Shown: positions 1 to 13,676, counted from the stretch's first letter. The stretch: 16,272 nt of DNA from Candidatus Krumholzibacteriia bacterium (GCA_036478295.1 JAZGDW010000281.1:1-16272), one strand, 5' to 3'. Translations and numbers: made by a program. The notes: generated from the sequence alone by a model not told the origin.

Positions 1-1715
1 GTTCCACCCCCATCGGTGGTGATAGCGTTGTCAGTGATTACTGCCTCGCTCGCGTTGGTGAGAAGAATTCCGAAGGAACCACCTCCACCCCCGGCTCCGA
101 GACCGCCTTCGCCACCGGCCCCACCCGCACCTCCACCACCGCCACCACCACCACAAACGAACAGCGAGGCAGCGCTACCACCCCCGCCGCCACCCCCGCC
201 GCTGCCGTGGATCCCAGTCGCGCCTTTCCCGCCGTTGGCGGTGTTGTACTTGCCCGAGCCCAACGAGCCAAACGCAAGTCCGCCGCTACCGGCGGCTCCC
301 TTGCTGCCGGCGCCGCCGGGGCTGCCATCCTTACCTACACCGCCTCCTGTCCCACCGGCACCACCCAAGCCCCCACCTGGCCCTTGTCCATCGGACCCGC
401 GAAGCCCGCCACCAAATGAGTTGCCCCCGTTTCCACCCTTTCCACCAGCTCGCCCGATGGACGAGGCGCCACCATCGCCTCCGCCACCCGATACGCTGCA
501 AAACCCCCCATCCTCACCCTTGCTGCCATTGCTTCCCTTGGCCCCATCCGCCCCCGAACTCCCATTGGCGCCGTCGGCACCCACACCCGCGATAAGTGTG
601 TTGCGTGAGATGACGACGCCCGTACTGGCACTCAGGCCGATAACAGTGGAACTCTCACCGGCCGTTACGCCGTCGGCACTTTCGATCGTCAGTCCGTCAA
701 GGGTCAAATTGTTGGCGCTCGAGCCCCTGACGGCCGTGGGACCGCCGATGATGAACGTCTGATTCTGCTGGATATCACGCAGCCAGGTTGCCGTACTAAA
801 GCCGCCGTAAATGCTAACGTCCGTGCGCAATGTAATCGTCTCTGCATACACTCCGTCGGCTACGTACACGTCCGCGCCATTACTCGAGTTATTGATAGCT
901 TCTTGCACCGAGGCAAGCGGCGCCTCACGTGTACCGGCGTTGGCGTCGTTTCCTGTCTTGCTAACCCATAAGGCGTTTGCCCCGTCTTCGAGAATCCAGA
1001 TCACCACCGTATCGGGCTCGCTCTCCTCGAGTCCGTTGTTCACCGTGAGCTCGAATTCCAATGTGGTAACCATGTCGGGCGTATCGAAGACAGACGGATT
1101 CGCTGCTGATGGATCCGACAGCGTCACCGTTGGACCAAAAATCTGGTTCCACGAGTAGGTCACGGGATCCCCGTCCGGGTCGAGACTCGCCGAACCGTCC
1201 AGTTGGAATGGCTCTGCTTTGCTTTTGTCTTGATCCGGTCCGGCGCTCGCAACGGGCAACGAACTGGCCGTAAACGACCAGGATGAGTCTGCCTCCAGAG
1301 AAGCACCTCCCAGATCTTTCACGTCGTCCGTAATTGTCGCCGTGTAAGTAATCCCCGGATCCAGCGGCGCGTCGGGTGTGTAAGTGGCGGTCTTTCCGCT
1401 GACACTCACAGTGCCGTTGAGACTACTGACTCGAAACGTCGTCGTAGTAACGCTCGAGGCACGGATGTTTTCGTTAAACGTTACGCTTACGATCGTATTG
1501 ACCGGAACCCCAGTAGCTCCATCTGCCGGGAAAACCGAGATGATTTGGGGTGGAACATTTAGCGGCGCCAGTGTTGGAGGTGGGTCATCTCCGCCACACC
1601 CGCCAGCAACGAATAACCACATCGTGGCCAAAGAAACTGATACCAACTTCAGTTTACGATCGCGGGCGAGCGTGTACGCTTTGTTCTGGGGGATAACCCG
1701 ACTTTGACGAGTCAT
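1..1715 (-). CDS. Surface lipoprotein, partial (3' end beyond window): Big_5/SbsA-like Ig domain, PKD-like domain, DUF1565/beta-helix region, PGRS-like Gly-rich region
   Basis: Translated by hand: ATG at 1715 with GGGAGG RBS (1723-1728), then 571 open codons to the window edge. Signal peptide ends VAGG-C40 (1596-1598). Motifs: PQIISVFPADGATGVPVNTIVSVTFNE...SWSFT (Big_5-like); PVASAGPDQ...LDGSASLDPDGDPVTYSWNQ (PKD-like); WVSKTGNDANAGTREAPLASVQEAI...VYVADGVYAETITL...IYGGF (DUF1565-like); then Gly-rich repeats. Confidence 0.9.
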   Translation of the reverse strand, partial: MTRQSRVIPQNKAYTLARDRKLKLVSVSLATMWLFVAGGCGGDDPPPTLAPLNVPPQIISVFPADGATGVPVNTIVSVTFNENIRASSVTTTTFRVSSLNGTVSVSGKTATYTPDAPLDPGITYTATITDDVKDLGGASLEADSSWSFTASSLPVASAGPDQDKSKAEPFQLDGSASLDPDGDPVTYSWNQIFGPTVTLSDPSAANPSVFDTPDMVTTLEFELTVNNGLEESEPDTVVIWILEDGANALWVSKTGNDANAGTREAPLASVQEAINNSSNGADVYVADGVYAETITLRTDVSIYGGFSTATWLRDIQQNQTFIIGGPTAVRGSSANNLTLDGLTIESADGVTAGESSTVIGLSASTGVVISRNTLIAGVGADGANGSSGADGAKGSNGSKGEDGGFCSVSGGGGDGGASSIGRAGGKGGNGGNSFGGGLRGSDGQGPGGGLGGAGGTGGGVGKDGSPGGAGSKGAAGSGGLAFGSLGSGKYNTANGGKGATGIHGSGGGGGGGGSAASLFVCGGGGGGGGAGGAGGEGGLGAGGGGGSFGILLTNASEAVITDNAITTDGGG

Positions 1716-1859
1716 GCGTGTACCTCCCATTGATCTTTGGGGATTAAGGTCGGTTCAGAACGGGGAGTGGCGCGAGATGTGATGAGCAGCTGACTGAAAC
1801 GGCCAACGAGCCCAACAAAATCGGGGGCGATAAGAAAACTCGTGTTACGTTATCACATT

Positions 1860-2273: not shown

Positions 2274-5200
2274 GTGCAGTTCCTAAAGACACATATTCGT
2301 ACCGCCGTTCTCGTAGCGCTTGCGCTGACGCTCGTATCGTCGACCGCGCACGCACAGTACGTTCAGCTTCAGGTGCTGCTGCCGGGTGAGACCGAAGCTC
2401 CGGGAACGTCCTCGGGGAAGCTTGGCACCCCGAGCGCACAGACGGTCGGCATCCCCTTCAACCTGACCGTCCGCGCCTGCGACGCCAACTGGAATACCAT
2501 GACGTCGATAACCAACGTCGTACAGCTCAGCTCTTCCGAAGCGCTGGCGACACTTCCGGCTGCGGCCTCACTTATGAGCGGTACGGTCAGCCTGTCGGTC
2601 ACGCTGAATGCGGCGGGCTCGTTTACGTTGTCCGCAGACGACCAGTCCGACCCAACCATCCCGCTGGCGACCTCCGCGAACGTAACCACGTTCTTGCTGC
2701 AAGGGTTCGACTTTTCAAGAATCAATCAGAAAAACCAGACGGCCGGCATCGCCATGAACATCACACTGTGGGCAGTCGACCCCAACGACAACGTGGTCAC
2801 CGGATTTTCGGGCCCGGTGCTGCTGCAGGAGATCACGAGCTTTGGAAACGGCCGTATCACGCCTTCCGTCGTCAATCTGACCAACGGCACGTGGACCGGC
2901 GGCTTGACCATGTTCCGCGCCGACGAGACCAGCATCAACCGCGGTAACGTGAACGTATTCGCGTCACTCCCCGGTGATCCGACCAAGAATGGCACCAGCG
3001 ATCCGTTCACCGTGCACCCGGGGCCGTTTACTCAGGTGCAGATTGTGGTCGCGGGACAGAGTCCCGCACCCGGCACTGTGAATGGTCTTACCGGCAGTCC
3101 CGCCTCGCAAGCGGCCGGACAGCTCTTTCAGGTGGACGTTTACTCCACCGATGACTTCTGGAACCCGGTGCCCAGTATAGACGTCGTCCGCATCACCTCG
3201 AGTGATCCGGCGGCGAGCACACCGGTCACCGACGCCTTGCTCAACGGTTTCGTCCAGCTTATTCTCTCGCTGGGTACGGTCGGCACACAGACGCTCACCG
3301 TCACCGATCAGACCAACGGTGCGATCCAGGGCATGACCAGCGCAGGGATTCTGGTCACGCCGAGCGCGCCCGACCATTTCGAAATCGATCCCATCCCGTC
3401 ACCGCTCACCGCCGGTACCAGCATTCCGGTCACCATTCGCGCCACCGACGTGGGCGGCAACACGGTCCCCGACTTCAGCGGCAACGGGATCCTGGTGGCC
3501 AATACGGGCCCGGGCAGCATTACGCCCGAGGCCATCGTCTTTGTGGCCGGCGTGTGGACGGGCAACATGGTATTTCGCGGTGCGGGTGGTGCCGTTGCAC
3601 TGACCTGTGCCGATTTCGCCTCCCCACCCCACATCGGTACCAGCAACAACTTCCAGGTGCTGCCGGCAGCTTTCTCGGGCATGCAGATACTTCTCCCCGG
3701 GCAGACGCCGCGGGGAGGGACCGCCATCGGCTTTACCGGCACCCCGACCGACCAGAACGCGGGTGCCAGCTTCAACCTTACCGTCAGAGCCGTCGACCAG
3801 TTCTGGAACCGCGTCTCGGGCGTGAACCACCTTTTTTCCCTGACCTCGACCGATACGTTCGCTGCCATGCCGTCCGACACGACACTTATAAACGGCGAGC
3901 TGATCTTTCCGGTGAGGCTCCATAAGGGCGGCAGCCAGACCATTACCGTCACCGACATCGATACGACCGGAATCACCCCGCACACCTCGAGCCCGGTAAA
4001 CATCCTCCCGGGCACGTACTCACGCATTCTCTTGATCGCACCGGGCGAGATCGTCGCGCCGGGACTGGCCGACGGGCGCTCTGGAGCGGCCACCGACCAA
4101 TCGATCAATTTTTCGTTTACCGTCACCGTCTACGCCACCGACCAGTGGTTCAACCCCATGGGAGGCGTGACCGACGTGGTACGAATTACTTCCGGCGACC
4201 CGCTTGCGCAGCTGCCGCCGGATACACCGCTGGCGAACGGCCGTGCCGACTTGACCATGCGGCTCTCGACCGGAGGTTTCCAGCAGATTACGGCGGAGAA
4301 CCTGACCCAGCCAGCGATGCCGACCAGTACGACCCAGGTGAAGGCGATATCCAGCGGTTTCCATCTCGAGGCCGATGTCAGTCCCACCAACGTGGGCGCG
4401 GGTGAGCCGTTCAACTTGACCGTGCGGGTGACCAACGACGCGGGCAGCGTGATCCAGGAAATCAATTCGTTCGTCACAGTCGTGGTCCAGAACGCGTCGA
4501 CGCAGGCGCCCGGCCAGGGCACTTTGCTAAACACCCAGTTCCAGCTCCTGCAGGGCGAGCGCACCATCGCGGAGACCTATACTTTCGCAGAGGACATTGT
4601 GCTCGTGATCACGGACGATGCGGGCAATGACCCCGCCGTGAGCGCGGTAGTCATGGTCACACCGGGCACACCGGCGGACATCCAACTGACCAGCAATCCG
4701 CCGTGGGTGCACGGCAACTCAAACTCCACCATTCGGGCACGACTGGTGGACGCTTATGACAACGGCTTCCCTGGAGCGCCGATGGTGTTCCAGATGGTGA
4801 GCGGCACGGGCACGCTGACCCCAATTGACTCTCTCACCAACAACAACGGTGTCGCGCTGGCTGACTTTGCGGCGCCGCGCGTGCCGGAGATCGACCGCAT
4901 CCGCGCCACGTCCGGCGCCATCGTCGCCGAGATAGACGTCGAAACTGCCTTTGTCGATCCCAGCAAACCGGCCGGCAGCATTACCAATTACCCGAATCCG
5001 TTCCACCCCAACGAGGCGCCGACCACGATCGCCTACAAGATTTCCGACGACGCAACCGTGACGATCCGCATCTACACGCTCAGCGGCGGACTGGTGCTTA
5101 AGACCACGTTCGACCAGGGCACACCGGGCGGCGTCACCGGACTCAACGAGTTCCAGTGGGACGGGCGAAACGGTGACGGCGAGCTCGTCGCAAGCGGCGG

Positions 5201-5279
5201 CTATATCGTCGTCGTCGAAGCCGTCGGTAACGGGGAGACTTTACAAACCATGCGCCGCAAGATCGGCGTGGTGCGATAG
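2274..5279 (+). CDS. Secreted multi-Ig-domain surface protein (1001 aa) with C-terminal T9SS type-A-like/FlgD-Ig domain
   Basis: GTG at 2274 with GAGG RBS at 2261-2264; Sec signal ending AHA|Q. About 8 beta-rich ~110-aa Ig-like repeats. C-terminus NYPNPF...TIAYKI...VTIRIYTLSGGLV...WDGRNGDGELVASGGYIVVV...RKIGVVR. Confidence 0.9.
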   Translation: MQFLKTHIRTAVLVALALTLVSSTAHAQYVQLQVLLPGETEAPGTSSGKLGTPSAQTVGIPFNLTVRACDANWNTMTSITNVVQLSSSEALATLPAAASLMSGTVSLSVTLNAAGSFTLSADDQSDPTIPLATSANVTTFLLQGFDFSRINQKNQTAGIAMNITLWAVDPNDNVVTGFSGPVLLQEITSFGNGRITPSVVNLTNGTWTGGLTMFRADETSINRGNVNVFASLPGDPTKNGTSDPFTVHPGPFTQVQIVVAGQSPAPGTVNGLTGSPASQAAGQLFQVDVYSTDDFWNPVPSIDVVRITSSDPAASTPVTDALLNGFVQLILSLGTVGTQTLTVTDQTNGAIQGMTSAGILVTPSAPDHFEIDPIPSPLTAGTSIPVTIRATDVGGNTVPDFSGNGILVANTGPGSITPEAIVFVAGVWTGNMVFRGAGGAVALTCADFASPPHIGTSNNFQVLPAAFSGMQILLPGQTPRGGTAIGFTGTPTDQNAGASFNLTVRAVDQFWNRVSGVNHLFSLTSTDTFAAMPSDTTLINGELIFPVRLHKGGSQTITVTDIDTTGITPHTSSPVNILPGTYSRILLIAPGEIVAPGLADGRSGAATDQSINFSFTVTVYATDQWFNPMGGVTDVVRITSGDPLAQLPPDTPLANGRADLTMRLSTGGFQQITAENLTQPAMPTSTTQVKAISSGFHLEADVSPTNVGAGEPFNLTVRVTNDAGSVIQEINSFVTVVVQNASTQAPGQGTLLNTQFQLLQGERTIAETYTFAEDIVLVITDDAGNDPAVSAVVMVTPGTPADIQLTSNPPWVHGNSNSTIRARLVDAYDNGFPGAPMVFQMVSGTGTLTPIDSLTNNNGVALADFAAPRVPEIDRIRATSGAIVAEIDVETAFVDPSKPAGSITNYPNPFHPNEAPTTIAYKISDDATVTIRIYTLSGGLVLKTTFDQGTPGGVTGLNEFQWDGRNGDGELVASGGYIVVVEAVGNGETLQTMRRKIGVVR

Positions 5280-5295
5280 ACAACCGGGAGGACCC

Positions 5296-6561
5296 ATGCT
5301 TACAACACACGGACATCATCTTCGCGGGTTCACTCTGACCCTGGCCCTTGTCATGGGCCTGGTTGCCTGCGCGGGCGTCGCGCTCGCCCAGGACCCCAAC
5401 GGTGGCGTACCCGGCGACTGGCTTTCCCGCTACATGGGCACGCGGAGCGCTGGCCTCGGCGGCGCGTTCGTGGCGGCCGCCAACGACCCCACCGGCGTGT
5501 TGTGGAATCCCGCCGGTTTGTCGCTGATCGCCCAGAACGCCGTACACCTGGAATCGGCGCGTCTTTTCGAGGACACGTCCATCCAGGGATTGAGCTTCGC
5601 CATACCGGCGCGGCGTTTTCCCAGTTTTGGACTGACCATCTTGAACCTGCGCTCGGGCAAGTTCGAGCGCACCAATGAGTTCAACCAACCGCTCGGTGAT
5701 TTCAGCGAGAGCGACATGGCGTTCTTTCTGTCCGCGGCAAAGAGTATCAGCCCCCGGCTCGCCCTCGGCGCCAACGTCAAAGTCGTGCGCCAGAGTATCG
5801 ACGAATTCGACGGCGTGGGTGTCGGTGTTGACCTCGGCGTTATCTATAGTGTCACCCCCAAGCTGCGTGTCGGCGGCACACTGATCAACCTGGGCGGCCC
5901 GACGCTCAAGCTGCGGGACACCGACGAGACATTTCCGTTCGAATTCCGCGGCGGCCTGGCGCTGACCTTCTTCAACGGTCGCGGCATGGTGGCGGCCGAA
6001 GTCGACCACCGCTCCGGTCCCGGCGCGTCGTTTCACGCGGGCAGCGAGTTCTGGGTTCACCACTCGATGGCGCTTCGCCTCGGCTATGCAGAGGACGCGC
6101 CGACCGGCGGTTTCAGCTACCGCATATCACCGGATCTTTTTCTCGACTACGCTGCTTCCGATGCGGAGCTGGGTGTCACCCATCACTTCGGCATCTCGTA
6201 CAACTTCGGTGGATTCTTCGCCAGTTCCGAAGCCATTCCGCCGGTGTTTTCACCGATCGGCCAGCAGTCCGTGACCAAGTTTCACCTGCGCGCCAGGACC
6301 AAGGCCGAGGCGAGCTCGTGGAACCTCGAGATTATCGATAAATCAAGCCAGGTCGTGCGCCGTTTCGGTGGCAGGGGAGTGCCGCCGGCGCATGTCATGT
6401 GGGATGGCAAGGACGAAACCGGATTGCCGCTGCCCGACGGGATCTACCGTTATCAGCTGGTGGTCATCGACGTCGAAGGCCGGGAATTTGTCGGCCATGA
6501 GCGCGACGTCGAGATCACCACGGGTGGTCCGCAGGGTTCGGTCCCGGTTTTTACGGACTAA
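5296..6561 (+). CDS. PorV/PorQ-family (FadL-like) outer-membrane beta-barrel fused to a C-terminal FlgD-Ig-like domain (421 aa)
   Basis: ATG at 5296 with GGGAGG RBS; signal ending ALA|Q. Family motif GTRSAGLGGAFVAAANDPTGVLWNPAGL; amphipathic strands ending HHFGISYNF (6181-6207). Then FSP...WNLEI...WDGKDETG...PDGIYRYQL. Confidence 0.85.
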   Translation: MLTTHGHHLRGFTLTLALVMGLVACAGVALAQDPNGGVPGDWLSRYMGTRSAGLGGAFVAAANDPTGVLWNPAGLSLIAQNAVHLESARLFEDTSIQGLSFAIPARRFPSFGLTILNLRSGKFERTNEFNQPLGDFSESDMAFFLSAAKSISPRLALGANVKVVRQSIDEFDGVGVGVDLGVIYSVTPKLRVGGTLINLGGPTLKLRDTDETFPFEFRGGLALTFFNGRGMVAAEVDHRSGPGASFHAGSEFWVHHSMALRLGYAEDAPTGGFSYRISPDLFLDYAASDAELGVTHHFGISYNFGGFFASSEAIPPVFSPIGQQSVTKFHLRARTKAEASSWNLEIIDKSSQVVRRFGGRGVPPAHVMWDGKDETGLPLPDGIYRYQLVVIDVEGREFVGHERDVEITTGGPQGSVPVFTD

Positions 6562-6574
6562 CGCAGGAGTCATC

Positions 6575-9500
6575 ATGGATTGGGAGAAACTATTGCGGAT
6601 CGTACGCATCCCCGCGTTTCTGAGCGTGGGGTTGTGTCTTGTGGCCGCCCCCGTTTACGGGCAGGACGATAAATCACCCGTCGAAACCAGAACGCTGGAC
6701 AGCGTCGGCATGGAGTTCGAGTGGGCGCGCCTCAGGCCGCTCGCCGACCGACGCGCGGCCCTGACTAACGTCGTCACGTCGTTCGACCAGCTCATGCGGG
6801 GCGATGTGCCGAAGCAGAAAAAGAGCGCCGCGCAATTCCTGTTCGCCGAGATCCTCTTTGCCTCGGGCGATTACCGCGAGGCGGCCAGTCAGTTCAACAA
6901 GGCCGCCAAGGCCGGCAAGAAGGGTCCCTTCGCGGACGACGCCGCCTTCGCCGGCATCCTCGCCCTCGAAGCACAGGGCCGCGACAAGGAGGCCGCCCGC
7001 CAGTGGAAGAAATGGCAAAAACAATACGGCACGAGCCCGCTCATGCCGGAAATGCTCCTTGCCCACACCTGGAACGCGCTGCGCCGTGATTCGCTGCGTG
7101 AAGCGACGCTTAGCTTCGCGCGGCTCAAGAGCGGCTTTCCCTACATGGTGCGAAAATCACGTGTCGTTCTGACCGGCGCGACCCTCGCCTACCTCGACAA
7201 CCGGTCCGACGAAACCCTCGCGCTTCTCGGCAGGAGCGAGACCGGCGTTGCCGCCATCTACCTGCGTGCCCTCGCCTACGAGGCCAAGGGCGCAATGCTG
7301 AAGGCCGCCGCTCAGTACCAGGAAGTCGTCGAGCGATTCCCGCGTTCCGTACTGCGCGATCACGCCATGATCGCCAAGGCCAATATTTTTCTCACCAGCA
7401 GCGCGTACCGCAGCGCCGCCGAGGAGTTCGGCCGTGTCACCGAGAAGGCCAGGCATGCGGACGTCCGCGCGGAGTCGGCCCTGAGACAGGCGGCGTGTGT
7501 ATTTCTGGATGGAAATGCCGAGGACGGCACCCAGCTGCTGCGGCAGGTCGTGGCTCAGCACGCCGGGACCGACGTGGCCGCGCGCGCGCAGCTCATGCTC
7601 GGCGAGGTGCTCGTCAGTCAGTCATTATATGAAGAGGCCATTCTGGAATTCAACCGCGTGCTCACCAGTTATTTCCAGCACGAGCTCGCCGCCAGCGCGC
7701 AGTACCGCGTGGGGCGGTGTCTCGATGCGCTCGAACGTCGCAACGAAGCAACCACTGCTTATAAGCTCGTCGTCTCCGGCTACCCGCAGGCGCCGCAGTC
7801 TCCGGCGGCCGCCTATCTCGCCGGCGTCGGACTTCTCGACCAGAACCGGCCGCAGGCCGCCGTACCGTATTTCCAACTGGTCCTAGACCGCTACGCGCAG
7901 GACAGCGAAGGCTCGATCGTCTTCGCCTCGACCGATCACCAGGAGCTGGTCGAGGCGTCACTGTGCCTGCTCGAGCTCTCGTACCACCGCATCGGCAACA
8001 TGGGACAGCTCACCGGCGTGCCGCACCAGATGCTGCAGAAGATGCCGCCAAGCAAGTCGCCGTGGCGGGCGTGGGCACTCCTTATAGATGCCGACGCGTT
8101 GGCCGCGCAGGCGCGTTACGGCGATGCGCAGGGCGTGCTCGCCACGTTGATCAAGGAATTTCCCACGCACAGCGTGGGGGTGGGCGCGAACCGGCTGCTC
8201 GCATGGACCTACGCGCGCCAAGGCAAGGACGACCTGGCCATTGCCACCGAAGAGCGCATGCTGGCCCGTTACGCCGAATCGGGCGACCGTGACAACTTGA
8301 GCGCCGCCTATCTCAACAAGGCGCACATTCTTTTCAATCGCAAGAAATACCGGGACGCCGCGAGCACCTACGATGATTTCCTCCAGCGTTTCCCCGCTCA
8401 TGAGCAACGGCCGCTCGCGCTGTACCAGTCGGGGCTGTGCCACTCGCGGCTCGATCATAACGGCGATGCCGTCGACCGCTGGGAAGCCGTGGTCGAGATC
8501 GACCCGTCGGCCGAGATCGCCGAGAAGGCCTGGGTGCGGGCCGGTGACCTGTACTTTCAAACCGAACACTACGAAGACGCCAAACGCTGCTACCAGGGAC
8601 TGCTGGATAATTTCGCCAACAGCCGTGCCGCCGCCCTCGGCATGCTGCGCATGGCCCAGTGTGATTACAATGCGGGCCGCGACGCGGAAGCCCTCGACGG
8701 CTTCTCCGCAGTGGCCGAGCTGTTCCCCGGCACGGGCATCTCCAAGGAAGCCGGGCGCGGCATCGAGCGCGCGCTCTATCGTTTGGGTCAGCGCGCGGAC
8801 AGCGACGAGATTCTGGCCGAACTCGTGGAGCGCTACCCGACCAGTTCGTTTGCCGCCGACGCACAGTTCGAGATCGCCATGCGCCATTTCGAAGCGGGCA
8901 AGTTTTTCGAAGCCGCCGAAGCGTTCCGGCGCGTCATCAGCCAGTTTCCCAGTTATCAGGAAGGCGACCGTGCACACTTTCTCATGGCCGACGCCTACGG
9001 CAAGGCCGGACAGGCGACGGACGCGCGGCTCGCCTACGAGCAGTTTCTCATGTTCTTTCCGGAGAGCGAGCTTCGCACGACGGTGCGTTTCCGCCTGGGA
9101 TCGGGCCGTTTCGACGAGGGCAACTACATGCAGGCCGCCGTCGACTTCATGACGGTGCTCGAAGACTCGACGACCCTGGAAATCGCATCGGCCGCGCTTT
9201 TCAACCTGGCGCTGTGCCGCCGCATACTGGAGGAAACCGCGGAGGCCAGGACGCTTCTCGAACGCTACCGCAAGCGCTACCCGAATGACGAGCGCGCCTC
9301 CCAGGTGGCCTACCAGCTGGGTGACATTCTCGACCTGAGCGGCGAGTACTTCGATGCCGCCGAACAGTACAAGCTCTCCATCCGCTCCGGCGCCGACCCC
9401 GTGCTCACCATCGAGCTCTACTACCGTCTCGGCGTGTGCCGCGAGCACCTGGACAACGACAAGGGCGCCATCCGCGCGTACCGGCAGGCCCTCAGTTCGA

Positions 9501-9682
9501 AGAAACGTTCCGATGCGTTCCGCCTGTCCGCCGTGGCGCGTTTGGCCGCGCTCTATGAAAAGGCCGGAAATTTCAAGAGGGCACTCACCGCATACAAGGA
9601 TTTGATACGCAACGCGAAGGACCCCGAGCTGGTGCTGGCCGCCAGGGAGCGCGCCACACAGATCGAAGCCGCCGTCAAGTAG
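6575..9682 (+). CDS. Large exported tetratricopeptide-repeat protein (1035 aa; CpoB/BamD-like TPR repeats)
   Basis: ATG at 6575 with AGGAG RBS; Sec signal ending VYG|Q. Many helical repeats of the form A.(F/Y)..G..(Y/L)...(Y/F)..A...(F/Y)..(V/L)...(Y/F)P.S along the whole length. Confidence 0.9.
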   Translation: MDWEKLLRIVRIPAFLSVGLCLVAAPVYGQDDKSPVETRTLDSVGMEFEWARLRPLADRRAALTNVVTSFDQLMRGDVPKQKKSAAQFLFAEILFASGDYREAASQFNKAAKAGKKGPFADDAAFAGILALEAQGRDKEAARQWKKWQKQYGTSPLMPEMLLAHTWNALRRDSLREATLSFARLKSGFPYMVRKSRVVLTGATLAYLDNRSDETLALLGRSETGVAAIYLRALAYEAKGAMLKAAAQYQEVVERFPRSVLRDHAMIAKANIFLTSSAYRSAAEEFGRVTEKARHADVRAESALRQAACVFLDGNAEDGTQLLRQVVAQHAGTDVAARAQLMLGEVLVSQSLYEEAILEFNRVLTSYFQHELAASAQYRVGRCLDALERRNEATTAYKLVVSGYPQAPQSPAAAYLAGVGLLDQNRPQAAVPYFQLVLDRYAQDSEGSIVFASTDHQELVEASLCLLELSYHRIGNMGQLTGVPHQMLQKMPPSKSPWRAWALLIDADALAAQARYGDAQGVLATLIKEFPTHSVGVGANRLLAWTYARQGKDDLAIATEERMLARYAESGDRDNLSAAYLNKAHILFNRKKYRDAASTYDDFLQRFPAHEQRPLALYQSGLCHSRLDHNGDAVDRWEAVVEIDPSAEIAEKAWVRAGDLYFQTEHYEDAKRCYQGLLDNFANSRAAALGMLRMAQCDYNAGRDAEALDGFSAVAELFPGTGISKEAGRGIERALYRLGQRADSDEILAELVERYPTSSFAADAQFEIAMRHFEAGKFFEAAEAFRRVISQFPSYQEGDRAHFLMADAYGKAGQATDARLAYEQFLMFFPESELRTTVRFRLGSGRFDEGNYMQAAVDFMTVLEDSTTLEIASAALFNLALCRRILEETAEARTLLERYRKRYPNDERASQVAYQLGDILDLSGEYFDAAEQYKLSIRSGADPVLTIELYYRLGVCREHLDNDKGAIRAYRQALSSKKRSDAFRLSAVARLAALYEKAGNFKRALTAYKDLIRNAKDPELVLAARERATQIEAAVK

Positions 9683-9796
9683 GCAGCGCATATGAAGCCA
9701 CCTCCGGGGGCGGGCAAACTCGAAGTCGCCACCGGGGTACAGCGCAAATACGAAGCCGCGGCCAGCAAGGCGCGAAACTGAACAAGGAGATAAGCA

Positions 9797-10522
9797 ATGT
9801 TTGCGGATTTTGACTGGCTAAACGCCACGACCAACAGCCCGATTTTTCTCGCGCTCGTGCTATGCAGCATCGTGACCCTGGCTGTCACCGTCGAACGAGC
9901 GGTCTATTTCTTCCGGCGCCGCGGCAACCCCGATGAGACGCTCGCCAAAGCGCTCAAGAAGATCAGCGCGGGTGCGCCCCGTGAGGCCGCGTGGGAATGT
10001 GAACACACCTCTCACCCGATGGGCGTGGTCGCCCTCGAAATCTTCAAGCACATTCACAGCAAGTTCGAGGCGCTCGAGGAACGCCTCCAGATCGCACTTA
10101 GCGGCCAGAAGCTCCTGCTCGAGCGCAACCTGAACGTGCTCGGCACCATGGCAGCCATTGCCCCCCTCATCGGTCTCCTTGGAACGGTGTGGGGGATCAT
10201 GCGTGCCTTTCACGACATGTCTGCGACAGGCTCCTCGGCGCCGTCGGTCGTCGCCTCCGGTGTCGCCGAAGCGCTGGTCACCACGGCTGCCGGTCTCGTC
10301 GTCGCCGTGCCGGCGTTGATGCTCTACAACTACTTCTCGCGGCGCATGAACGTCACGCTGACCATCTCGGAGAACTACTGCCGGTCGATACGCACGGCGC
10401 TCCTGGAGAGCGGCGCGGCGGAGGGTGGCTCTTCCATCCAGCCGTCCGGCAAGGAAGGCGCCAGCAAACCGGCCGCCAAGCCGAACCTCAAGCATCAACC
10501 CGAACCGATCGTGACGAGGTAG
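9797..10522 (+). CDS. exbB: MotA/TolQ/ExbB proton-channel protein
   Basis: AAGGAG RBS; three TM segments; conserved LGTMAAIAPLIGLLGTVWGIMRAF and GVAEALVTTAAGLVVAVPA...YNYF. Confidence 0.93.
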   Translation: MFADFDWLNATTNSPIFLALVLCSIVTLAVTVERAVYFFRRRGNPDETLAKALKKISAGAPREAAWECEHTSHPMGVVALEIFKHIHSKFEALEERLQIALSGQKLLLERNLNVLGTMAAIAPLIGLLGTVWGIMRAFHDMSATGSSAPSVVASGVAEALVTTAAGLVVAVPALMLYNYFSRRMNVTLTISENYCRSIRTALLESGAAEGGSSIQPSGKEGASKPAAKPNLKHQPEPIVTR

Positions 10523-10526
10523 CCGC

Positions 10527-10940
10527 ATGTTCTTTCAGAAGAAGATGAACAAGGACAGTGACGGCAATCACGAGGTCAATATGACCCCGTTGATCGACGT
10601 CTCACTCGTACTCGTGGTCATGCTGATGATGGCTACGCCACTGGCGTTCGAATCGAGTATCAACGTCAAGAAGTCCAGGCCGAGCGCCAAGGTGTCCGAG
10701 CAGGAAAGCCACCGCGAGCGTGTCGAAGTGCGTGTCTTCTCGGAAGACAGCGTCCGCGTCAACCTGACTGTCGTTCCGCGCAAGGAGCTCACGGACACGC
10801 TGCGGCCGCTCATCGCCTCCAGCGTGGATGGATTCGTCGTGGTCCGCTGCGACGACGACGTCACACACGGCACGTTCGTCGACGTGCTTGACCAGGCCAA
10901 GATGTCCGGCGCATCGGAAATCGCCGTGGTGGGGAGATAA
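10527..10940 (+). CDS. exbD: ExbD/TolR family protein (copy 1)
   Basis: EVNMTPLIDVSLVLVVMLM TM segment with the conserved Asp; C-terminal VVVRCD...V.VLD.AK.SG...IAV. Confidence 0.92.
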   Translation: MFFQKKMNKDSDGNHEVNMTPLIDVSLVLVVMLMMATPLAFESSINVKKSRPSAKVSEQESHRERVEVRVFSEDSVRVNLTVVPRKELTDTLRPLIASSVDGFVVVRCDDDVTHGTFVDVLDQAKMSGASEIAVVGR

Positions 10941-10941
10941 C

Positions 10942-11364
10942 ATGAGGGATCCGCTAGTCCAACCCGCACCGACGATCGCACGGATCAACGTCACGCCCAT
11001 TATCGACGTGGCGCTAGTGCTCGTCATCATTCTGCTCATTACCGCGCCGATGATTACGAATTCGAATATGGACGTCGACCTGCCGGCCGCGCAGACGCGC
11101 GCCGCTGAGGACGAGGTGCGTATGAGCGTCACCATGGGCGTGCACGGTGAGCTCGCCATCAACGAGAACACGGTCCCGGCCAAGGAGTTTGTCCGAACGC
11201 TCGCCGCACGCCTGGCCGAAAGCAGCAACAAGAACATCCTGGTCGTGGTGCGCGCCGACGCCGGCATGCCCTACGATTCCGTCAACCACGTACTCAAACT
11301 GGTACGCAAGGCGGGCGCCATGCGCGTCGCCATCGCCACACGCCAGCGGGAGAAGAAAAGCTGA
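10942..11364 (+). CDS. exbD: ExbD/TolR family protein (copy 2, 140 aa)
   Basis: ATG at 10942, 1 nt after the previous stop, with GGAG RBS. Motifs INVTPIIDVALVLVIILLITAPM, VDLP, VRADAGMPY..V..VL..V.KAG..RVAIAT. Confidence 0.92.
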   Translation: MRDPLVQPAPTIARINVTPIIDVALVLVIILLITAPMITNSNMDVDLPAAQTRAAEDEVRMSVTMGVHGELAINENTVPAKEFVRTLAARLAESSNKNILVVVRADAGMPYDSVNHVLKLVRKAGAMRVAIATRQREKKS

Positions 11365-12305
11365 TGGCCGGCCAGATCGTCACCGAGGAACTGGAAGTCA
11401 TCCGCCAGCGCACGCGCAAGTGGCTCTACTGGAGCATCGGCGCGCACGCGCTGCTCTTTCTGATGCTCTCTCTTTATCACAAGATTATTCCCGAGCCGCT
11501 CGCGATTACCGAGATAACGTGGATCGACCCCGTGGAAGCAGCCACACCGGCGCTGCCCGTTGCCGTGGCGAAGAGCGAGCCGGCACCGGCCGAGAAGACC
11601 TCGCCGGAGAGGCCGTCACCGCGCAAGATCGATGACAATTTCAAACGTGAGCAGCCGCTCGCCGAGCTGGCGCCCGACCCGCAGTCCATACAGGCGATCC
11701 AGGACAAGTTGAGCGAGCGCCTCGCCTCGCTGCAGCGCGACGCCACCACCAGACCGAAGAAGATTGCGTCGCTGGCCGCCCCGAGTCCGGTGGGCCGGCC
11801 GAAGCTCGCCGGTGTCGCGGACGACGCGCGCACCGGACGCCAGACCGATTTGACACGTACCGAAGTCTCCACGCCGAATCCGATTGCGCTGACCCGATCC
11901 AGGACAACGATCAAGAAGGCCGCAGTGGCCACACCCGTGCCCAAACGACCGGTCGCGCGCGCCCAGAACGATGCGACGGAAAGCGCCGCACAGCGGGAAG
12001 TGGCCGGTGCGCAGATGACGGGCCCCGTTGCCGACCGCCCGATCATCTCGTACAACACACCGGTCTACCCCGAGTGGGCGAAGAGCGAGGGTGTGCAGGC
12101 TTCGGTCATGATTTATTTCGTCGTGCTCCCCGACGGGCACGTCAAAGAGAACGTCATGGTCCAGAAAACGTCAGGCTTTACCGATTTCGACGACAACGCC
12201 GTCAACGCAATTCTCGCCTGGCGCTTCGCGCCGCTCAAGGGCTCCGTGACCGGCGAGCAATGGGGTACGATTATGTTTCACTACCGTTTGACCGGTGGGA
12301 ACTAA
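11364..12305 (+). CDS. tonB: TonB family energy transducer
   Basis: TGATG overlap with exbD2. N-terminal TM with S-x3-H (WSIGAHALL), Pro/Ala/Thr-rich linker, and TonB_C domain PVYPEWAKSEGVQASV...V.PDG.V...SG...FD..A..A...WRFAP. Confidence 0.88.
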   Translation: MAGQIVTEELEVIRQRTRKWLYWSIGAHALLFLMLSLYHKIIPEPLAITEITWIDPVEAATPALPVAVAKSEPAPAEKTSPERPSPRKIDDNFKREQPLAELAPDPQSIQAIQDKLSERLASLQRDATTRPKKIASLAAPSPVGRPKLAGVADDARTGRQTDLTRTEVSTPNPIALTRSRTTIKKAAVATPVPKRPVARAQNDATESAAQREVAGAQMTGPVADRPIISYNTPVYPEWAKSEGVQASVMIYFVVLPDGHVKENVMVQKTSGFTDFDDNAVNAILAWRFAPLKGSVTGEQWGTIMFHYRLTGGN

Positions 12306-12473
12306 CGAATGGGCGTAACCTTTAAATGGAAATAAATTAGCGATGGGAAATAATTTCAGGCGTCTCTTGTTTTTTCGCCTGCGGCGGTTTCGCATACGGA
12401 TTCCGGCAGCCTGCCGGATACAGGTGCCGGCCGCGCGCTGGTGGCGAAGATAGATTTTATGGAGCGTAGTATA

Positions 12474-13478
12474 ATGAAAAACACTCGATGGATCCTCACA
12501 GCTCTCTTCTCGGTCGGCGCCGGGATCGGTGTCAGCAGCCTCATGTTCACCGACGTCACCGCGGCAAAGAAGAAAGACGTCAAATCCAAACCCGCGGCAG
12601 AAGCCGACAGCACCATGAAGCTCGAGGCCGGCACGGGAGGCACGATTTTCAAGAGCCTGCGCATCGAGGGCGAGGACCGGGTGCGTATCGAATTCGAGCG
12701 TCCCGCCCTGAACCCCAATCTCGACCCCACGAGTGCTCCCGGACTCGAGTGGGAAAGCGTTCGCGCCGTGCTGAGCCACAGCGGTCTCGACCTGGTGTCG
12801 CCGTATATCACCCGCTCCGCCACGCAGCGCCCGCCGTTCTACGCGCGTCCGTGGCTCGATCATTTCTCGACCCGCGGCGTCGCGCGTTTTCGCCCCGTTC
12901 TCGAGGGCGTCGACCGCTGGCGCCTGAACGTCGCCAACTCGCAGGGTGAGACCGTCGCCCGCTTTGAAGGCAAAGGAAAGCCGCCCAAGGAAATCACCTG
13001 GGACGGCCGCTCACTGGACGGCAAGCCGGCGCCGCCGGGGCTGACTTATACTTATGTGTTGGAGGCGTTCGACCGTGCGGGCAACAAGCGCAACTTTCTC
13101 GGTGACGGATTCGAGCTGCCGTCCTACCGCTTGAACACACCCGAAGGCTTTACTATGCTCTTCTCCGGGGACAAGCTCTCTGCGCAGCGCCCGGCGTCCG
13201 CCCAGGCCGGCGGCGACGAGCCCGCACCCGCGATCCTGCTCGAAGCGGCCAGCTGGATCAACCAGCGGCCCAACTCGCAGGAGACCGTTCGCGTCGAGGT
13301 AACGGCGCGCTCGTTCAGCGACGCCAAGCAGATCGCCGGCAGCATCATCGAGCAGCTACGGCCGCTGCTTCTCGGCGACCCCGCACGCCTCAAGCCGATT
13401 GCCGCCGTGCAGAACGGCGCGCCCGACCGCGGCTCGGTCGCGATCGTCGTGGGCCCACCACCGGCGCCCGCCGAGTAA
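12474..13478 (+). CDS. Exported hypothetical protein (334 aa): central FlgD-Ig-like domain and possible degenerate OmpA-like C-terminal domain
   Basis: ATG at 12474 with GGAG RBS at 12461; N-terminal signal or anchor. WRLNVANSQGETVARFEGKGKPPKEITWDGRSLDG...YTYVLEAFDRAGN. The C-terminal alpha/beta pattern resembles OmpA_C, judged by eye only. Confidence 0.75.
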   Translation: MKNTRWILTALFSVGAGIGVSSLMFTDVTAAKKKDVKSKPAAEADSTMKLEAGTGGTIFKSLRIEGEDRVRIEFERPALNPNLDPTSAPGLEWESVRAVLSHSGLDLVSPYITRSATQRPPFYARPWLDHFSTRGVARFRPVLEGVDRWRLNVANSQGETVARFEGKGKPPKEITWDGRSLDGKPAPPGLTYTYVLEAFDRAGNKRNFLGDGFELPSYRLNTPEGFTMLFSGDKLSAQRPASAQAGGDEPAPAILLEAASWINQRPNSQETVRVEVTARSFSDAKQIAGSIIEQLRPLLLGDPARLKPIAAVQNGAPDRGSVAIVVGPPPAPAE

Positions 13479-13572: not shown

Positions 13573-13676
13573 TGACAGTATGCTGTCATGTGATTGACAG
13601 TATGCTGTCATGTGATTGACAGTGTGCTGTCATGCGGTTGACAGTATGCTGTCATGCGGTTGACAGCATGCTGTCA
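13573..13676. repeat. Tandem array of five palindromes TGACAG-N4-CTGTCA with a 22-bp period
   Basis: Copies start at 13573, 13595, 13617, 13639 and 13661. Centres are TATG, TATG, TGTG, TATG, CATG; 6-bp linkers are TGTGAT, TGTGAT, TGCGGT, TGCGGT. Confidence 0.97.

Follow-up and report, generated by a model that had tools for sequence, protein, structure and literature searches.

A Ton-type motor and type IX secretion-like parts combined in a conserved accessory operon of Krumholzibacteriia

What is a Ton-type proton motor doing in one operon with parts that resemble those of a secretion system driven by another motor? The question is raised by the genome of a Candidatus Krumholzibacteriia bacterium, in which a stretch of 16,272 nucleotides (nt) (GCA_036478295.1, JAZGDW010000281.1:1-16272), analyzed in full and called here the window, carries eight genes (g1 to g8) between positions 2274 and 13478 of the plus strand. 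They encode a presumed surface protein made of immunoglobulin-like (Ig) domains, an outer membrane barrel, a tetratricopeptide repeat (TPR) protein, four motor subunits (ExbB, two ExbD, and TonB), and an exported protein with an OmpA-like domain. Type IX secretion has been described as a Bacteroidota system driven by the rotary GldLM motor. The parts of the Bacteroidota type IX secretion system (T9SS) include the SprA translocon, the PorV carrier, the GldLM motor, the GldKN hub, and the TPR scaffold SprE (PMC10994853), and the available part of a 2015 survey reports the system only from Bacteroidetes (bioRxiv 031039).

We found this operon to be real, conserved, and accessory, an envelope machine whose parts are of T9SS and Ton types. 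Each part has a known fold, no paper found in our searches describes the combination, and the function proposed for it is a putative one. Our preferred explanation, held tentatively and with somewhat less than even confidence, is that a private Ton motor pulls, via g8 and the TPR scaffold, on a carrier dedicated to a single Ig filament exported by SprA, which is thereby released or displayed. The gene set and order, the folds, the motor residues, the presence of SprA in the host, and the distribution of the operon were observed, and from them we infer every contact and the direction of work in this scheme.

RESULTS AND DISCUSSION

Gene content and conservation of the operon

An initial sequence-only reading had described eight co-oriented and mostly tightly spaced genes of named families, and coordinates, family models, and folds bore this out. 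They are, in order, the Ig-array protein g1 (2274 to 5279), the PorV/PorQ-family barrel g2 (5296 to 6561), the 1,035-amino-acid (aa) TPR protein g3 (6575 to 9682), the ExbB/TolQ-type proton-channel subunit g4 (9797 to 10522), the ExbD subunits g5 (ExbD-1, 10527 to 10940) and g6 (ExbD-2, 10942 to 11364), the TonB-like transducer g7 (11364 to 12305), and the 334-aa exported protein g8 (12474 to 13478), with intergenic gaps of 16, 13, 114, 4, 1, -1, and 168 nt. As the same reading had stated, the usual partners of such motors are missing from the window: no TonB-dependent receptor, TolB/Pal, or GldL/M gene was found among the 11 window proteins scanned with family models. A promoter scan was uninformative (6 sites versus 3.3 ± 1.6 in shuffled sequences).

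Gene order is conserved far beyond chance, with all eight genes present in the same order in 43 of the 61 loci examined; a further 17 are cut short, at a contig end or at the border of the fetched region, and keep the order, and the last holds a lone g8. These 61 loci comprise the window, 29 loci found through g2, fetched regions numbering 16 and 10, and 5 of 80 metagenome loci, chosen by length; they are not independent, since operon genes served to find them and many are related to one another. The g2 search gave 30 loci, namely, the 29 close relatives and one distant barrel without the operon (L048), which was excluded from the count. Apparent disorder at three loci and an unassigned g7 at a fourth proved to be artifacts of open reading frame calling once the genes were ordered by domain coordinates. 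The eight-gene block was never split by a receptor gene in the loci compared. Two operon types could be distinguished, a short one with a g1 of ca. 1,000 aa and a long one with a g1 of ca. 2,100 to 2,300 aa, and both keep the gene order. The lone g8 homologue (L090:14403-15449, on contig C3 of genome G070) shows no match to the N-terminal arm, and the same genome holds a full long-type operon.

The nearest named relatives are labeled Krumholzibacteriia or Latescibacterota. In the host's phylum, g8 was found in 87 of 131 genomes and not found in the other 44, near-closed genomes such as G025 (2 contigs, 97%) among them, and the operon is thus accessory there. In the phyla of the records labeled Eiseniibacteriota, Zixiibacteriota, and Caldithrix, g8 was detected in 30 of 81 (29 of 80 without the unpublished genome G150, on which nothing else here depends), 2 of 6, and 9 of 61 genomes, respectively, and complete ordered loci were seen in all four phylum-level samples. 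Pairwise gene distances across 39 loci gave Spearman coefficients of 0.73 to 0.91 among g2 to g8 and of 0.51 to 0.73 with the C-terminal domain (CTD) of g1; because kin share history, these correlations were not counted as coevolution.

The presumed cargo, its barrel, and the TPR protein

The product of g1 has 1,001 aa: a signal peptide comes first, then eight Ig-like domains, then a CTD that ends in RRKIGVVR. Big_1 and FlgD_ig exceed their Pfam cut-offs, the internal repeats share up to 39% identity, and the AlphaFold model (mean predicted local distance difference test [pLDDT] of 84.9, predicted template modeling score of 0.40) is all-beta save for the signal peptide. No catalytic, enzyme, or ligand-binding family was found in it by family models or fold search. 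A specific structural relative was also sought with Foldseek, and the whole model retrieved generic Ig arrays alone (template modeling score of ≤0.19). Homologues of g1 numbered 778, of which the best 120 span 966 to 1,063 aa. No other operon gene is as well conserved (mean pairwise identity of 62.5% for g1 versus 42 to 58% for the others), and the g1 CTD is 68% identical to those of its orthologues. We predict that g1 is a surface filament or adhesin.

The CTD (residues 899 to 1001; 4968 to 5279) shows weak matches to the CTD regions of the PorZ, PorU, and M6i models. The host genome contains 85 FlgD_ig matches, 83 of them terminal and 77 followed by an end strand of the K/R-hydrophobic kind seen in RRKIGVVR; the two that are not terminal lie in g2 and g8. 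From these positions it follows that the g1 tail is of the host's cargo type and that g2 and g8 put the same fold to another use. The weak model matches and the tail strand suggest that the g1 CTD is probably a T9SS-type export signal.

Assignment of g2 to the PorV family rests on model NF033709 (110.8 bits, cut-off of 90) and on the PorV structure 6h3i (E value of 4.5e-14), with scores below the equivalog cut-offs of both PorV and PorQ. The barrel occupies approximately residues 32 to 304 and is followed by a C-terminal FlgD-Ig domain, with matches to FlgD as well; the sequence-only reading had not mentioned this domain. This extra domain would be located in the periplasm, and g2 would act as a carrier or anchor dedicated to this operon. 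The conserved C-terminal strand of g2 (GPQGxVPV) had been considered as a TonB box and was dropped because the long-type g2 lacks it and alignment A6 barely fits the pattern. The next gene, g3, has a signal peptide read from the sequence and TPR arrays (TPR_6, TPR_16, and TPR_2 in Pfam), with repeated YbgF- and BamD-type TPR matches, which is consistent with a periplasmic scaffold.

The motor and its candidate target

The g4 product matches PF01618 above the Pfam cut-off (E value of 1e-33) and the ExbB structure 5sv0 (E value of 3e-21), and the channel Thr motifs are kept in 39/39 and 38/39 loci. An ExbB tree built in quick mode had very long outgroup branches. Both g5 and g6 exceed the Pfam cut-off for ExbD (PF02472). 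The membrane Asp is invariant in ExbD-1 (39/39 loci); at the same position ExbD-2 has Asp in 24 loci, including the window, Asn in 10, and Gly in 5. This loss of Asp in 15 of 39 loci hints that the two ExbD proteins may be unequal. The transducer g7 consists of about 20 cytoplasmic residues, a membrane helix with SxxxH (45/45 copies), a Pro/Ala-rich linker, and a TonB_C domain above the cut-off (PF03544, E value of 1e-13), and all 16 of its PDB matches are TonB-family proteins; family-model scans gave no match to an FHA domain in it. As a whole, the proton path of the motor looks intact.

In g8, an N-terminal arm of low model confidence precedes an FlgD/Fn3-type Ig domain, whose fold matches include the PorU CTD and FlgD, and an OmpA/MotB-like domain (overall pLDDT of 85.2). 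The latter escaped Pfam in the window protein and was revealed by fold comparison, with MotB and OmpA entries at the top (best Z score of 10.8 and root mean square deviation of 2.8 over 100 residues aligned to 3oon); this search barely covered model residues 1 to 93. Within the arm lies a TonB-box-like strand (KSLRIEGE, residues 60 to 67; 12651 to 12674), conserved in alignments A4 and A7, which is the candidate pulling site. It reads xSLTVEGE in the short type and LPEMVVEA (PEMVVEA) in the long type; in Calditrichota-type copies, where only a few residues separate it from the signal peptide, it is LDDVVVKE or LDEVVVKA. One host receptor has PEIVVEAA where a TonB box would be expected. The g8 strand fits a TonB-box pattern with at most one mismatch at the same position in 63 of 101 homologues, and a second set gave 22 matches in 119 sequences (7.2 expected from shuffles), compared with 3 in 290 segments elsewhere. 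The g8 arm is the likeliest pulling point for TonB, a good lead rather than a result as judged from these alignments. The sequence-only reading had the motor acting via the TPR scaffold on the barrel, and we consider the g8 N terminus a likelier target of TonB than a direct contact with either.

Many proteins of 1,000 to 4,000 aa (P0142, P0166, and similar ones) carry 8 to 27 repeats of the g8-type Ig domain, with an OmpA end in one of the two scanned, and may be fused relatives of the periplasmic parts of g2 and g8. In the Atlas, similar proteins belong mostly to Spirochaetota, and its clusters also include relatives from Elusimicrobiota and WOR-3.

Secretion parts and other motors of the host

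The sequence-only reading had proposed a dedicated module that exports or anchors its own cargo, a proposal borne out in part. The host assembly (90.9% complete) has SprA above the cut-off of TIGR04189 on another contig, C267, along with 11 PorV-family and 4 C25 peptidase matches. SprA was found in 130 of the 131 genomes of the phylum. Among g8-positive genomes, 86 of the 87 within the phylum have it, as do 36 of the 40 that were searched from a total of 41 in other phyla. Since SprA is present in the host and in nearly all carriers, the module is probably not a self-contained exporter. The sprA gene, truncated at the contig end (L054:1-9358), stands head to head with lptF, lptG, and a second gene with a GWxTD domain. 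A different contig, C288 (L056:1-9706), encodes a PorU-like C terminus followed directly by the best PorV match of the host, a 1,133-aa protein with a weak SprA match, and a BamA/TamA-like gene.

The expectation that these genomes lack GldL/M held insofar as none was found, GldM in 0 of 131 phylum genomes, GldN in 0 of 5, and GldL in 0 of 5, with a second set of 5 having none above the cut-off and one weak match (E value of 9e-4); it is unproven because no control genome was scored. With SprA nearly always present in the phylum sample and no GldM detected, the energy source for SprA comes into question.

Four ExbB/TolQ genes were found in the host, one in the window and the others on contigs C182, C81, and C97. 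C182 holds a full tolQRAB-pal-cpoB locus, and C81 (L051:8668-15854) an operon of a TonB-dependent receptor, a PorV-family barrel, a GWxTD protein, ExbB, and ExbD. All six TonB-receptor matches of the host lie on contigs outside the window. Because the Tol-Pal and receptor-linked sets sit at these separate loci, the motor of the operon is not simply one or the other, in agreement with what had been supposed from the window. A close match to the C81 ExbB occurs in 130 of 131 phylum genomes, as many as have SprA, and in several assemblies it lies ca. 40 to 80 kb from sprA. The operon is not the general SprA motor, because g8 is found in 87 genomes and SprA and the C81 ExbB in 130; the C81 operon is a better candidate for that role, and it may simply be a housekeeping Ton locus.

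The C97 cluster (L052:5671-11464) encodes a TolA/TonB-like protein, ExbB, ExbD, a DNRLRE-domain protein, a barrel with a BamG match below the cut-off, and a TPR protein, and is another motor set with an unusual output. The small contig C300 (L055, 3,434 bp) carries a second tolR-tolA-tolB-pal fragment whose proteobacterial-type TolA/TolB scores are far above those of the C182 locus; it is possibly a contaminating contig.

Proposed mechanism

In Flavobacterium, the CTD binds to loops of PorV inside SprA, and the extraction of carrier and substrate from SprA requires energy (PMC10994853). Surface proteins can also stay on their cognate barrel with a periplasmic OmpA-type partner, for example, PorE (PMC9143113). 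By analogy, g1 would be moved across the inner membrane by Sec and across the outer one by the host SprA translocon, and its CTD would be captured by the cognate PorV-type carrier g2 and remain there, as SprB does on SprF. ExbB, ExbD-1/ExbD-2, and TonB would tap the proton gradient, with TonB_C gripping the TonB-box-like arm of g8, a soluble periplasmic protein, and g8 together with the TPR scaffold g3 would transmit the force to g2 through its periplasmic Ig domain. The work done would free the g1-g2 pair from the translocon, the step powered by GldLM in Bacteroidota, so that an Ig filament of fixed length is displayed.

The resemblance to the Bacteroidota T9SS includes the PorV-family barrel, the CTD-fold tail, the TPR scaffold, SprA and C25 peptidases in the host, and presumably a proton motor acting on the carrier. 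Unlike it, the operon has an ExbBD-TonB motor (GldL/M/N were not found), a barrel with an extra Ig domain, and an accessory distribution, tied to one cargo.

The display mechanism draws on the complete gene order at 43 of 61 loci, the existence of short and long g1 forms, the cargo-type tail, the co-occurrence with SprA, the failure to find GldM, the motor residues, and the TonB-box-like strand of g8. Several observations weigh against it. About 80 other CTD proteins of the host need no adjacent private motor gene, and another ExbB equals SprA in frequency (130/131), so the need of g1 for an export motor of its own is unexplained. The g1 tail scores below the TIGR04183 cut-off (17.2 versus 23 bits), SprA went undetected in some g8-positive drafts (1 of 87 and 4 of 40), and the negative searches for GldL/M/N are limited by the missing positive control. 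As for the pulling site, the TonB-box pattern is loose. The window copy of g8 has three mismatches to it, the five host receptors tested fit it only with two mismatches, and folded Ig strands of g1 fit it too (16/20 at one site). In its sequence profile, g8 bore no likeness to the one host TonB receptor compared (probability of 0.3%), and by the same figure the idea that g8 is a split receptor plug is unsupported.

Alternative explanations

The motor could instead work after export, tugging, cycling, or releasing the displayed g1 filament via g2 in the manner of the Agl-Glt machinery, with attachment and detachment, surface sensing, or slow surface movement as proposed uses. The force chain would be the same as in the display mechanism and its timing different. 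We regard this alternative as unlikely. The block of TPR protein, ExbB, two ExbD, and TonB matches the make-up of the Agl-Glt core, in which a TolQ/ExbB-like protein, two ExbD-like proteins, a TonB-like transducer, and TPR proteins are encoded in one cluster and, in Myxococcus, the force chain leads to a surface adhesin (PMC3169522). For that machinery, TonB_C acting on a boxed outer membrane platform that bears an adhesin has been proposed (bioRxiv 2020.07.22.216333). A most conserved g1 (62.5% mean identity) with no catalytic domain detected would suit such a role, as would an accessory operon in cells whose separate, universal ExbB could cover export. Against this stand the differences in parts: unlike GltG, g7 gave no FHA match, and the part that precedes its membrane helix is only about 20 residues long; there is one large TPR protein instead of three (GltC/D/E); and the outer membrane part is a PorV-type barrel with CTD cargo, the operon having neither a GltA/B/H-type barrel nor a vWA adhesin. 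By itself, moreover, the Agl-Glt core has been judged insufficient for motility (PMC3169522). The motor block also resembles that of the TPR-tolQ-tolR-tolR-vWA clusters of the Planctomycetes-Verrucomicrobia-Chlamydiae group, in which the transducer ends in a vWA domain and not in TonB_C; the available part of that report mentions no PorV or CTD cargo (PMC12204202).

Uptake, with g1 binding at the surface and the motor powering import through g2 or a receptor encoded elsewhere, appears improbable to us. PorV-family barrels resemble FadL, g7 matches TonB-family structures only, and the host has six TonB-receptor matches that the motor could serve. The likeness to Ton import extends to the motor subunits, the SxxxH helix, TonB_C, and a target resembling a TonB box. 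The operon, however, has no 22-strand receptor, either in the window or interrupting the block at the loci compared, and its box-like strand sits on a soluble protein of Ig and OmpA folds; the host has a separate receptor-linked ExbBD operon, and the searches described above detected no enzyme or ligand-binding family in g1. A TonB link to secretion is not without precedent, as seen in the Oar-dependent secretion of PopC (PMC6434023).

About equally improbable, in our view, is a tether like Tol-Pal or PorE, in which g8 anchors the g2-g1 complex in the cell wall and the motor, by forming or undoing this connection, remodels the envelope. OmpA and Pal proteins usually bind peptidoglycan through the motif GH[TA]D ... 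LS..RA. Although g8 has the OmpA/MotB fold, GH[TA]D is missing from all 101 and all 119 homologues in the two sets, and LS..RA and LA..RA occur in 1 and 10 of the 101, respectively. PorE, which joins TPR and OmpA-like parts, binds both the barrel PorP and the cargo (PMC9143113) and has been proposed as an outer membrane-peptidoglycan tether (PMC12204202). The sets PG1035-PorP-PorE and SprB-SprF are indeed similar to the operon in having a surface CTD protein, its own barrel, and periplasmic TPR and OmpA-like parts (PMC9143113). In contrast to these sets, the barrel here is of the PorV/PorQ and not the PorP kind, the TPR (g3) and OmpA-like (g8) parts are separate genes, the usual motif is lacking in the latter, and a full Ton motor is co-encoded. 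The operon also has no tolB or pal, the host has a complete tolQRAB-pal-cpoB locus, and 44 of 131 phylum genomes did not yield the operon.

That the operon is a general SprA energizer replacing GldLM for all CTD cargo in these phyla is highly improbable. The presence of SprA, PorV-family barrels, C25 peptidases, and CTD proteins speaks for it, as does the failure to find GldL/M/N, but the distribution of g8 (87/131, with near-closed G025 among the misses) against that of SprA (130/131), which the C81 ExbB tracks, largely refutes it.

Because the operon lacks a defining feature of each of the Ton import (a linked receptor), Tol-Pal (TolB or Pal), and Agl-Glt core (an FHA domain, three TPR proteins) systems, and GldLM went undetected, we set it apart from the known kinds.

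Flanking regions

The genes on both sides of the operon are on the opposite strand. Upstream, a partial divergent gene (3 to 1730, minus strand) encodes a protein, probably a lipoprotein, in which Big_5 and PKD domains occur along with a glycine-rich region; downstream, an aspartyl protease-PDZ protein and a cysteine synthase are encoded. Five 22-bp units, each with the palindrome TGACAG-N4-CTGTCA, lie at 13573 to 13676, in the spacer that separates g8 from the convergent protease gene. The unit has 31 exact matches on 13 host contigs and none in the loci of the other genomes fetched, and it looks like a member of a repetitive extragenic palindromic (REP)-type repeat family.

Implications

In the literature searched, as judged from titles and the starts of abstracts, we found no description of this operon. 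It may represent a new class of machine, a possibility in which we place slightly less trust than in the display mechanism, where a Ton motor pulls a TonB box on a free periplasmic adaptor, g8, and so drives a PorV-type carrier and an Ig filament. As a candidate nonreceptor target of TonB, g8 would, if confirmed, widen the known outputs of 5:2 proton motors. Having a Ton motor, a type IX carrier, and its cargo in one conserved unit also makes the energy question testable with eight genes. If the proposal is true, then, together with the ExbBD locus that tracks SprA, type IX-style secretion outside Bacteroidota would run on ExbBD-type motors and not on GldLM, and the motor of the T9SS would be a replaceable module.

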